The translations under genes were made by a program, and so were the position numbers. From the IMG/VR virus record IMGVR_UViG_3300021256_000005: 64,000 nt of DNA; one strand, given 5' to 3'. Shown here piece by piece: positions 13,663 to 15,950 of the stretch; the stretch's first letter is position 1, and each line of letters begins with the position of its first letter. The DNA comes from a virus. The notes below the pieces were generated by a model. It was not told the origin of the DNA. It ran no database searches and saw only the letters and a list, made by a program, of their open reading frames with translations.

Positions 13663-13691
13663 TTGACAAAATTAAAAAGTTGTGTTATTTT
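13663..13691 (+). promoter_or_regulatory. weak candidate rightward promoter into the hub
   Basis: TTGACA (13663-68), 17-nt spacer ending TGT, then TATTTT. The extended -10 TG is present but the -10 hexamer is poor. Confidence 0.25.
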
Positions 13692-13787
13692 ATTATAATA
13701 TATATATATTAATTATATATTATATATATTTATATATTAATTATATATAAATTATATATTATTAATATAATATTATTACGTTTTATT

Positions 13788-13877
13788 CGGCAGTCGTGTC
13801 AACGACTGACGATAGCGTGACGTTGCATCGCAACGGAACGCGCCCCGCCGACAGGCGGCGTTGCCGACAGGCAACTG
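13788..13877. repeat. GC-rich palindrome island 1 (four adjacent hairpins)
   Basis: Hairpins at 13791-13808, 13815-13841, 13845-13858 and 13861-13874. The last two share a GACA loop. Confidence 0.85.
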
Positions 13878-13962
13878 TATAATAGTATTATATATATTTA
13901 TATTATATATAATATATATTATATTTATATATATATATATATTATATATTTATATTACATAC

Positions 13963-14038
13963 ACTTAGACAGCTACGCCAGTAGCTGGCTAACGGTGCTG
14001 GTATTGCGTAGCAATGCCTGCGCCGAAGCGTCGCAGAC
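13963..14038. repeat. GC-rich palindrome island 2 (three hairpins)
   Basis: cagctac-gcca-gtagctg 13970-13987; attgc-gta-gcaat 14003-14015; ctgcg...cgcag 14018-14036. Confidence 0.8.
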
Positions 14039-14389
14039 ATATATATTATATATATTATTATATATATATATATATATATATATATATATATTTATATATT
14101 ATACAATAAGATAATATATTTGTCAAGTATAAAATTATAATTATTTTAATAATATATTTAATTAAATATATTTAAGTATTATATTATATACTATATATTT
14201 AGTTAAATATATTTAAGTATTATTATAATATATAATTATTTATATATTATTATATATCACTGTATATTATTATATAATAATTAAGCACCATAGTTATTAT
14301 ATATTATATATTACTAATTACATACATCATCAATTACATACATTACTAATTACCAGAGTTATTATTTTATTATTGTTTATTGTTTATAT

Positions 14390-14462
14390 ACTTTTGGCTC
14401 CTTTTGCTAACGCAAAAGATCACCAAAAGTTCGTATTCCTTCGCAAGCGAAGAAATACGAGT
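14390..14462. repeat. GC-rich palindrome island 3 (nested hairpin plus 30-nt palindrome)
   Basis: acttttgg/ccaaaagt encloses ttttgc-taac-gcaaaa (14390-14430). A near-perfect palindrome spans 14431-14460. Confidence 0.8.
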
Positions 14463-15950
14463 GTAATATATATAAATAAATATATTATTATATTTATATT
14501 ATTATATATTTATTATATATTATTATATTATATATTTATTATTATTTATATTATTATATATCTATTATTCTGCTGAGTTATATTATATTAAACAGTGTGG
14601 TTGCTATATATTATTATTTATTAAATATTTTATCTATTACTTTATCTATCGTTTGTATTATTCATTCACACTATTGAATTGTTATTATATACCCATACAA
14701 CAACACACAGTCATTTTGTGCGCTGTTTTATATATGCAGTTTAATAAGTTTACCCTAAATTATTAAAACGTCTGTATAAGCCTAATAGATATGTTATTTG
14801 AGGTGTGCCTTTTTTGGCGGGTTCTATTTTGTTGCGTGCTAGTTCCTGAGCTGTTTAGTTTATTATTTAATCGCTGTTATTTGCGCCGCCAAATTATATA
14901 TACCAAACGTCCTGTATTTTTAGCGTGTTTGTATTTGTTTGGTTGCCTATTTAGTTTAGTGTTCTGTAAGATGAGACAGTAAACTATTTGGATGTTATAT
15001 TTAGTTATATATTATATTATATATTTATATATTATTGACTGTCCAATTATTTTTCTGCGCCTTGTATCTTTGTCGGCTTTGTTTTATATTATTACTACAG
15101 TATTTTATAGAACCGCTTGTCTGAAACATGCCTATATCTACACCTATTGATTGTACGCATGTTTTTATGACACCACCCTATAACTTTTACGTCTGAGAAT
15201 AAAAACGTCTATATGAGCGTTTTAGAGCATTGTATAATACATTGATGATTGTCTATGTGTTTTGTTTAGTTAAATAAATTTAATTAAATTTCTTTAAGTA
15301 TTTATTGGTGCGCCACTAGAAATATAGGCAGTATTTGACTGCTTTGTTTTGCGATGGTAAACTGTATTAAATAATTATTTGCGTGTTTTATTACCGCCTG
15401 CGAAATAGAATAATGTATATTTATTCATTGTTTATACATTTTGACTTGTTTGGTTGTTAATTTTTGCGGCTGTAATTTTTGGTTGTAGCCGTTAATGTTT
15501 GCGATGGTCTGTTTAATGTGTAAATATACCCCGCCTGTTTATTAAGTATGAGATCGCTGTTGGAGTACTTTTTTAATGTGTTTTGTATGTTATTTAGCTG
15601 AAAGATAGTTAAGCCATTAAGCAGTCAATTAGTTTAGATGATTGTTTTATGTTTGATTGAACAGAGCAATAGTGGTTGTTTCGTATTATTATATAGCACT
15701 TAAATGATTGCTATTGTTTTGCTGATGGTTTATTCTGCGTTATTAGACAGCTAATTAGTTGAGCAGATATATGCTAATTTGTCCGCGCTGTAATTAGTTT
15801 ATTTATTGGAGCAGTAAGTGATTTGCTAGTTCTATATTGCAGTTGTTTAGTCAGTGATGTTTGATGTTAAATTAGTTAGGTTCCTAACTAACTAGGTGCT
15901 AAGCCATTTTTGTGGCGACTGAGGGTGTTATTTTATATTAATTATATATA

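Follow-up and report, generated by a model that had tools for sequence, protein, structure and literature searches.

Stem-loop islands in near-pure A/T DNA upstream of the helicase and YonO-type RNA polymerase genes of an SPbeta-like phage: most likely an RNA-level or origin-type control element

Introduction

Face-to-face promoters combined with tandem stem-loops are the layout of antisense-RNA control modules, such as ColE1 RNA I/RNA II, pT181, the R1 countertranscripts and pCF10 prgQ/prgX, and also that of long leaders that set mRNA stability, processing and read-through. Orientation-specific clusters of imperfect hairpins likewise occur in the ssoA-type single-strand origins and the M13 minus-strand origin, which act in single-stranded DNA (ssDNA), are read by the host RNA polymerase (RNAP) and are associated with PcrA/UvrD-type helicases. 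Here we describe a viral region that can be compared with these systems, positions 13686-14575 of a 64,000-nt window (the whole stretch of DNA analysed, from IMG/VR record IMGVR_UViG_3300021256_000005; 34.9% G+C overall), in which three G+C-rich islands of stem-loops are embedded in DNA that is otherwise nearly all A/T. This region makes up the left fifth of a 4.9-kb gap free of open reading frames (ORFs; 13572-18455), which separates two diverging gene blocks, a leftward one with helicase, RNAP and late genes and a rightward early one. The likeliest account is that the islands are folded segments of untranslated transcripts, or of a replication origin, that control the helicase/RNAP genes.

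Layout and position, not sequence, are what this region has in common with origins of the c2 type and with the yonP-yonR region of Bacillus phage SPbeta. The Ceduovirus (c2-type) origin lies between divergent early and late blocks, is flanked by promoters and gives rise to a structured non-coding transcript implicated in initiation (PMC7150918). The region described here is also non-coding, sits at a divergent early/late junction, has host-type promoters and lacks any ORF or ribosome-binding site, but it is part of a 4.9-kb gap instead of a short intergenic region, and the likeness is one of layout only. The SPbeta yonP-yonR region resembles the gap in its position relative to yonO and the early block and in being long, ORF-free and C-poor on the same strand; unlike the gap, it measures only ~950 bp, is not made of A/T alone and lacks hairpin islands of this sort. 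The master repressor MrpR of SPbeta targets the syntenic yonP promoter, upstream of yonO (PMC10516654), and the only mapped YonO start site of that phage is upstream of yonK, downstream of yonO (PMC5467207).

Results

The first-pass annotation of this DNA had described ~890 nt of near-pure A/T sequence with three islands and a (TA)16 run at 14059-14090, and these coordinates and sequences were verified. Outside the islands, 13686-14575 contains 45 G/C in 658 nt (6.8% G+C). The islands together hold nine stem-loops, arranged as follows:

13680-13787: A/T tract 1, at most 5% G+C
13788-13875: island 1, 66% G+C, four back-to-back stem-loops
13788-13812: island 1, stem-loop a, loop GTCA, slightly more stable on the plus strand
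13815-13841: island 1, stem-loop b, loop ATC, slightly more stable on the plus strand
13845-13858: island 1, stem-loop c, loop GACA, slightly more stable on the plus strand
13860-13875: island 1, stem-loop d, loop GACA, slightly more stable on the plus strand
13876-13963: A/T tract 2
13964-14036: island 2, 59% G+C
13970-13987: island 2, hairpin with loop GCCA, paralogous to stem-loop a of island 1
13988-14029, plus strand: island 2, long hairpin of 17 bp with two G·U pairs
14018-14036: island 2, competing stem, C(UUCG)G loop possible on the minus strand
14037-14121: A/T tract 3, containing the (TA)16 run
14306-14353: three tandem copies of the 16-nt unit ATACATTACTAATTAC
14390-14460, minus strand: island 3, 41% G+C, two stem-loops
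14390-14430, minus strand: island 3, nested hairpin, loop GUUA on this strand
14431-14460, minus strand: island 3, second hairpin of 13 bp, G(CUUG)C loop, terminator-like on this strand
14461-14571: A/T tract 5, with the least stable 100 bp in the window

Compared with 200 dinucleotide-preserving shuffles per island on both strands, the folds reached z-scores of -5.6 (plus) and -3.5 (minus) for island 1, -4.1 and -1.6 for island 2, and -6.9 and -8.9 for island 3. The five 100-bp duplex windows with the lowest stability in the 64 kb all lie inside 13686-14563 (-81 to -88 kcal/mol; mean, -124.5 +/- 7.1), and stretches with at most 5% G+C are, within the window, confined to the 4.9-kb gap. These results uphold the earlier view of the islands as non-random stem-loop clusters in very meltable A/T DNA. 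The hairpins that the annotation had named all fold where it placed them, except that in island 2 its two small hairpins are replaced on the plus strand by the single 17-bp hairpin; two pairs of them look like paralogues, whose members differ by compensatory transitions. The region is not an assembly artefact, because the entire gap is present in an independent assembly (ENA ERZ12302812), which differs by one substitution in 20.5 kb (at 14176, beside one copy of the TTAAA-N4-TTTAA palindrome described below), and because island 1 is identical in two more assemblies as far as each extends.

The stem-loops are not equivalent on the two strands. In islands 1 and 2 every hairpin is more stable on the plus strand apart from 14018-14036, which is about equal on both, and in island 3 both hairpins are more stable on the minus strand; these preferences are the same under RNA and DNA parameters. 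Pairs that form only as G·U number two in island 2 (plus strand) and three in island 3 (minus strand), and the five G·U-compatible positions on one strand are A·C mismatches on the other. GNNA loops fall on the favoured strand, as does the G(CUUG)C loop of island 3, and island 2 could also form a C(UUCG)G loop, on the minus strand, which is not the one favoured there. When both strands of the 64 kb were scanned for GNNA tetraloops closed by a perfect stem of at least 5 bp with at least three G-C pairs, five of the seven matches fell within the 232 nt of the islands. Loops measure 4 nt in six of the nine hairpins and 3 nt in two, that of 14018-14036 being larger and irregular. Strand asymmetry and G·U-only positions together argue for a function in one single strand, RNA or ssDNA, and the asymmetry argues against symmetric cruciforms and double-stranded operator sites.

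The paralogues bear on what has been selected. The 18-mers CAGTCGT-GTCA-ACGACTG and CAGCTAC-GCCA-GTAGCTG differ at nine positions, all of them transitions, which resolve into four compensatory pairs and one loop change without a broken pair, that is, five independent differences, transitions throughout. Between CCGCC-GACA-GGCGG and TTGCC-GACA-GGCAA there are two compensatory pair changes and, again, none broken. By this comparison the stems look selected for intrastrand pairing, not for sequence.

None of the stem-loops belongs to a catalogued RNA class: Rfam 15 (including its CRISPR-repeat models) returned no family at gathering score in the gap and, when relaxed to E<=5, chance matches to Pestivirus UTR (untranslated region) models only, and a tRNA/tmRNA scan found none in the gap, which leaves CRISPR-repeat mimics and known small RNAs without support. 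In a lenient scan for intrinsic terminators, 14460-14431 on the minus strand was alone among the nine hairpins in passing, with the tail ACTTTTGGTG; the remaining eight are followed by mixed A/T, and the phage's clear intrinsic terminators have T-runs.

Promoter-like sites and repeats surround the islands and recur at the right end of the gap:

13610-13638, minus strand: proximal helicase/RNAP promoter, sigma-A-type, TTGACT-17-TATACT
13663-13691, plus strand: promoter-like site P_as (proposed antisense), TTGACA-17-TATTTT with TGTG before the -10 box
14098-14126, minus strand: promoter P_L (proposed distal), sigma-A-type, perfect consensus TTGACA-17-TATAAT
14151-14221, minus strand: two 30-nt repeats, 41 nt apart, with the palindrome TTAAATATATTTAA at 14162-14175 and 14203-14216
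14162, 14203, 15270, 15284, 16423, 17513, 17632, 17670 and 17708: copies of TTAAA-N4-TTTAA in the gap
17625-17850, plus strand: three 38-nt repeats with the AATACTTAAA-N4-TTTAA motif, then a rightward promoter
17822-17850, plus strand: this rightward promoter, sigma-A-type, TTGACA-17-TATACT
17851-18454, plus strand: structured leader or non-coding RNA of ~600 nt, ahead of the first early gene

The proximal promoter is ~40 nt upstream of the helicase start (13571) and is conserved in a 91%-identical relative (L006). Back to back with it, P_as combines a perfect -35 box, also conserved in L006, with a TRTG-type extended -10, and points into island 1 from a predicted start at ~13698. P_L reads leftwards from a predicted start at ~14091. 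Under local composition, at least one match to the perfect promoter consensus has a probability of P=0.007, and TTGACA, expected 1.84 times in the gap, is present there in 10 copies (P=0.0005). P_as and P_L face each other, and their predicted transcripts overlap for ~394 nt that span islands 1 and 2; against shuffles, the fold of this overlap has z-scores of -9.4 and -5.8 on the two strands, the latter belonging to the leftward leader.

The 30-nt repeats lie 36 and 77 nt upstream of P_L, and their extended motif is AATACTTAAA-N4-TTTAA (in its fuller form, AATACTTAAA-N4-TTTAAyTA). TTAAA-N4-TTTAA is found nine times in the gap, against 0.13 expected locally, and these are nine of the ten copies in the window. 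Arrays of the motif stand upstream of both divergent promoters, with two copies on the leftward and three on the rightward side in the same orientation to the promoter; in the only relative that reaches the part around 17822 (L009, 79% identical), the motif copies and promoter hexamers are conserved and the spacers diverge. Judged by this distribution, TTAAA-N4-TTTAA is likely a regulator site, and the regulator is possibly an MrpR-like protein encoded by the phage; by analogy with the yonP promoter of SPbeta, the repeat arrays are candidates for MrpR-like control.

Our preferred reading, which we put forward tentatively, is that the islands are RNA-level stem-loop modules in the leader and antisense control of the helicase/RNAP operon. 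They would work single-stranded, most likely as RNA, in a promoter-dense control region between the diverging blocks. The P_L transcript would be a ~520-nt untranslated leader of the helicase/YonO-RNAP operon, running through islands 2 and 1, and the P_as transcript would be an antisense RNA; both would fold because the stems are palindromic, and they would carry the same seven stem-loops as complementary copies with unstructured A/U spacers between them. Islands 1 and 2 might then act in stability, processing, read-through or sense-antisense pairing, and island 3, ~260 nt upstream of P_L, might stop or insulate minus-strand transcription coming from further right. This control would involve a protein bound to the AATACTTAAA-N4-TTTAA repeats that precede the two divergent promoters, and the net effect would be on the amount and timing of helicase and RNAP, hence on the switch to late transcription. 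We infer from the layout of the sequence that the promoters fire, that the two RNAs exist and interact and that regulation follows.

Comparison with antisense-RNA modules cuts both ways. The two convergent promoter-like sites ~390 nt apart, the G+C-rich stem-loops in their overlap and the position upstream of key replication and transcription genes are all as in those modules. In contrast, the usual kissing loops of antisense-RNA modules measure 5-7 nt, as opposed to the 3-4-nt loops of the islands, and the islands differ further in being split by long pure A/U spacers, in having no sequence similarity to such modules and in being covered by transcripts that are predicted only.

The phage itself offers support for control at the RNA level. 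Across 17851-18454, alignment with L009 leaves none of 154 predicted pairs broken and shows 7 compensatory and many G·U-compatible changes. This ~600-nt stretch, which has no Rfam match, is a candidate new large structured RNA and a mirror image of the proposed leftward leader; as its predicted structure is kept in L009, long structured leaders are part of the design of this phage, which carries a ROOL RNA as well. The same reading draws support by analogy from the combination of the MrpR-repressed, syntenic yonP promoter in SPbeta with an MrpR-like protein here. Of the two proposals in the first-pass annotation, the fallback of small stable RNAs comes closer to this reading than the idea of hairpin promoters does.

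The genes on either side define the phage. Adjoining the gap on the left, on the minus strand, is a gene for a 579-aa helicase of UvrD/PcrA type, in a place where the annotation had expected a primase; Pfam and PHROGs scans of the flanking genes recognised no initiator, Rep or primase beside the gap. The leftward block goes on to a 926-aa RNAP, which is not of T7/N4 type: the protein is a YonO-type two-barrel enzyme by its match to the Pfam RdRP family PF05183 and by tblastn matches to YonO, and shares 25-31% identity with YonO relatives. Also encoded in this block are an HU-like protein, proteins like YonJ, YonG and YonD, and a terminase. On the right, on the plus strand, small early-type genes come first, and beyond them are an MrpR-like protein (30511-31422), two proteins of the tyrosine-recombinase family, a DnaB-like helicase and PolIII alpha, which at 1097 aa is the largest ORF of the window. 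By this gene content, the phage is an SPbeta-like, temperate phage of the human gut.

Several observations on the genome stand apart from the islands. The ROOL RNA (Rfam RF03087, full-length, 300 bits) lies at 4133-4690 on the minus strand, between the YonJ-like and YonG-like genes, and at the corresponding place in SPbeta, the 1.7-kb yonN-yonK gap, there is a DUF3800-VIII RNA motif. Between the HU-like and YonJ-like genes, an aminotransferase class V gene (Aminotran_5; 6452-7567, minus strand) is unusual cargo for a position in a late, structural block. The large subunit of ribonucleotide reductase (57854-60196, plus strand) has a weak match to the intein-splicing domain PF14890 at residues 153-253, and intein domains are also present in several relatives of the helicase.

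To the right of the examined region, the gap continues as a 2.8-kb ORF-free domain (14576-17400) that is C-depleted on the plus strand (A 26, C 9, G 20 and T 45%). GC skew climbs to +0.88 at 17001-17200, GTGAGTT repeats occupy 17210-17390, and the C-depleted domain stops abruptly at 17400. Compared with L009, the domain is a mosaic of blocks that are 90-100% conserved and of variable blocks, and minus-strand RNA from it is predicted to be essentially unstructured. Just beyond, at 17470-17545, a block of 76 nt is identical in the 79%-identical relative and contains the palindromes TTTTGACATTTATGTCAAAA, with two opposed -35-like boxes, and AGTTAAATTTTTTTAACT.

Searches for the islands elsewhere recovered little beyond the phage itself. 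Exact-pattern scans of IMG/VR, JGI metagenome contigs and GTDB genomes found none, a search of IMG/VR anchored on the helicase protein gave no relative carrying islands, and contig look-ups yielded nothing but the same phage or contigs broken at the A/T tracts. In the one close relative (SRR29381473, helicase 91% identical), the sequence ends precisely where island 1 begins on its left and, from the other side, extends no further than window position 16159; in A/T tract 1, indels are the sole differences from L006. A six-frame chimeric 'protein' of the three islands, made to catch spurious ORF calls, had no match, and when the gap in full was compared by BLAST with 50,697 phage records, the sole match was a chance one in A/T sequence. 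We also tried and rejected the degenerate tandem pattern GCCGACAGGC-N(2-10)-GCCGACAGGC, all 32 of its IMG/VR matches being unrelated tandem or collagen-like repeats.

A comparable tract does exist in related phages. PMBT24 has ~800 nt of near-pure A/T DNA with large palindromes upstream of a YonO-like gene, and the CB-series Enterocloster phage records and MT835481 begin inside such a tract. An A/T tract upstream of the YonO-type RNAP gene is therefore a recurrent feature of related gut phages, and one that breaks assemblies. Covariation could not be read from PMBT24 and CB473P3, whose sequences are identical in the analogous tract. In the Enterocloster phages the tract holds a nested palindrome of ~228 bp and a hairpin with the 11-nt loop TCCACTTCGTT, the loop being conserved between PMBT24 and CB457P1 on stems that are completely different (these features lie at 9002-9299 in PMBT24, L011, and at 1440-1480 in CB457P1, L016), and the CB457P1 record ends in a long poly-T run.

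Several observations weigh against leader and antisense control. Promoter-like sites as a whole are not enriched (30, against 38 in shuffles), and A/T-rich DNA yields -10 matches freely. P_L, the stronger of the predicted promoters, reads islands 1 and 2 in the less favourable sense, and island 2 attains a z of only -1.6 on that strand. Since each paralogue was picked for being a hairpin, the 'compensatory' changes were in part assured beforehand, and the informative part of that comparison is the shared frame and the transition-only pattern. The island hairpins lack the U-tracts of the phage's clear intrinsic terminators, which makes a terminator role for island 3 weak. The scans and look-ups above retrieved no relative that covers the islands. 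Finally, the region may have an additional or alternative role in replication; if priming is done by a structured RNA made from a promoter, the RNA and origin readings coincide in part.

Among the alternatives, a replication origin survives best, and we consider it possible, if doubtful. The A/T tracts with (TA)16 would be the unwinding element, the two 30-nt units, the three 16-nt units and the TTAAA-N4-TTTAA palindromes would be the initiator sites, and the islands, folded on melting or in a primer transcript, would hold the bubble open or prime DNA synthesis, an arrangement that would resemble the lactococcal c2 origin transcript, ColE1 RNA II or single-strand initiation signals. Position speaks for it: the region coincides exactly with the divergence of the gene blocks and with the cumulative GC-skew minimum, contains the five most easily melted 100-bp windows of the 64 kb, together with direct repeats and palindromes, adjoins the helicase gene and has the c2-type origin as a precedent, with its non-coding site between divergent blocks, flanking promoters and structured transcript (PMC7150918). 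The skew argument is confounded, however, as the switch in skew coincides with the switch in gene orientation, and the rightward C-depletion is graded and ends abruptly at 17400, which is not a replication signature; for this reason the GC-skew boundary was dropped as an origin marker.

In two distant relatives, whose helicases are 43-47% identical to that of the window, divergent intergenic regions contain clusters of perfect, co-oriented DnaA boxes (TTATCCACA; three in L007 at 1488-1642 and two in L008 at 420-586), which points to the divergent junction as the likely origin position in the group; 13572-18455, however, has no DnaA box even at one mismatch, and no initiator gene was recognised near the gap. 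The favoured strands on both sides of the central A/T tract have their 3' ends directed into it, as expected for converging primer transcripts, but for priming on ssDNA they are the leading-strand and not the lagging-strand templates. In sequence the region resembles no known phage origin, and blastn against the 50,697 phage records gave no homology to origins of the c2, bIL67 or 923 type. An ssoA-type origin was rejected: the conserved RSB sequence of these origins, TTATGCCGAGAAAATTT (PMC4598088), has no match in the window at up to 3 mismatches, and the CS-6 hexamer TAGCGT, present at 13813-13818, separates two stems instead of occupying a terminal loop, and is at chance frequency (18 in the window, 18.9 expected). 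Unlike ssoA plasmids, the phage has no Rep nickase that we could find, and encodes its own PolIII alpha and DnaB-like helicase.

That the region is a packaging (pac) site, where terminase would recognise the islands or nearby DNA to start headful packaging, seems improbable. SPbeta-like genomes do have their opening point and pac between yonR and yonP, on a fragment that its authors screened for inverted repeats (bioRxiv 10.1101/2021.11.22.469490), the gap occupies the same place in the gene order, between the early block and the yonP/yonO-type block, and SPbeta-type late genes (YonJ, YonG, YonD and terminase) are present. The SPbeta gap, however, is C-poor with GGTGAnTT-like words, and the part of the present gap that matches this description, 16400-17400 with its GTGAGTT repeats, is 2-3 kb from the islands. 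Moreover, there is no sequence similarity to SPbeta, and the mapped pac site of PMBT24 is 9.6 kb away from its A/T tract (PMC11035940).

We give just as little weight to the islands having no function of their own, as relics, selfish G+C palindromic insertions or double-stranded operators for dimeric proteins. Their layout is like that of GC clusters in A/T spacers (yeast mitochondrial spacers, REP-like elements), the A/T tracts evolve by indels, and hairpins are palindromic, as operators are. Yet no further copies exist in the 64-kb window, on which ground a mobile GC cluster was rejected, nor in the scans of IMG/VR, JGI metagenomes or GTDB genomes, and no independent sample that extends into island 1 differs there. 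As operators, nine different palindromes would need many different proteins, and the G·U-only positions break double-stranded symmetry.

A further proposal, which strikes us as quite unlikely, is that the islands are single-strand start signals, exposed by melting of the A/T DNA and read by the YonO-type RNAP or by the replication machinery. Related to it is the first-pass idea of hairpin promoters after the manner of phage N4. Like the N4 early promoters, the islands contain short G+C-rich hairpins whose extrusion could be aided by supercoiling, promoter recognition by YonO-type RNAPs is unknown (PMC5467207), and the Enterocloster phages with a YonO-like RNAP also have hairpins in the A/T tract upstream of its gene. 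The N4 analogy nevertheless did not stand up. The only phage RNAP found is of the YonO two-barrel type, not T7/N4-like, the one mapped YonO start of SPbeta is downstream of yonO, and the equivalent late-operon intergenic regions of the window have no similar hairpins. The geometry also differs from that of N4 promoters, with loops mostly of 4 nt instead of 3 nt, hairpins that are not directly upstream of genes (no gene starts within 200 nt) and neither a flanking motif nor a promoter sequence in common.

Stems of 5-7 bp are short for stable cruciforms, given the energetics of extrusion. Inverted repeats with arms of ~10 bp or more, a short spacer and A/T-rich flanks are limited to (TA)16 and the two palindromes of island 3 (30 and 41 nt); all three are long enough for extrusion, though the island 3 palindromes carry A·C mismatches on the plus strand, and the stems of islands 1 and 2 fall short of this size. 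Least probable of all are DNA-level hairpin or cruciform signals, that is, supercoil-extruded palindromes serving as RNAP promoters or as sites for structure-specific proteins, since the extreme meltability of the A/T flanks is set against five G·U/A·C asymmetries and a consistent strand bias that a symmetric two-strand structure would not have, and for islands 1 and 2 symmetric cruciforms are disfavoured.

Discussion

We take the islands to be, most likely, a control element of RNA-level or origin type at a divergent junction, familiar in kind but unusual in design. What sets it apart is the cleanness of that design, in which G+C stem-loop modules, pure A/T spacers, face-to-face consensus promoters and oriented repeat arrays are combined. 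In this phage group, most short-read assemblies are interrupted by the A/T tracts, and the element is therefore systematically missing from databases.

Its interest would be much higher if the hairpins were start signals for the YonO-type polymerase. In that case they would be the first class of promoter or initiation signal for the YonO-type RNAP family, and the conserved-loop hairpins upstream of the Enterocloster YonO-like gene would be their counterpart. As minimal relatives of cellular RNAPs, the YonO-type enzymes are interesting in evolutionary terms.

On our preferred reading of leader and antisense control, or as an origin, the locus would suit experiments on either kind of function in phages of gut Firmicutes. 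The region controls, or adjoins the control of, the phage RNAP and helicase, and is for that reason a likely site at which the decision for late development is executed.

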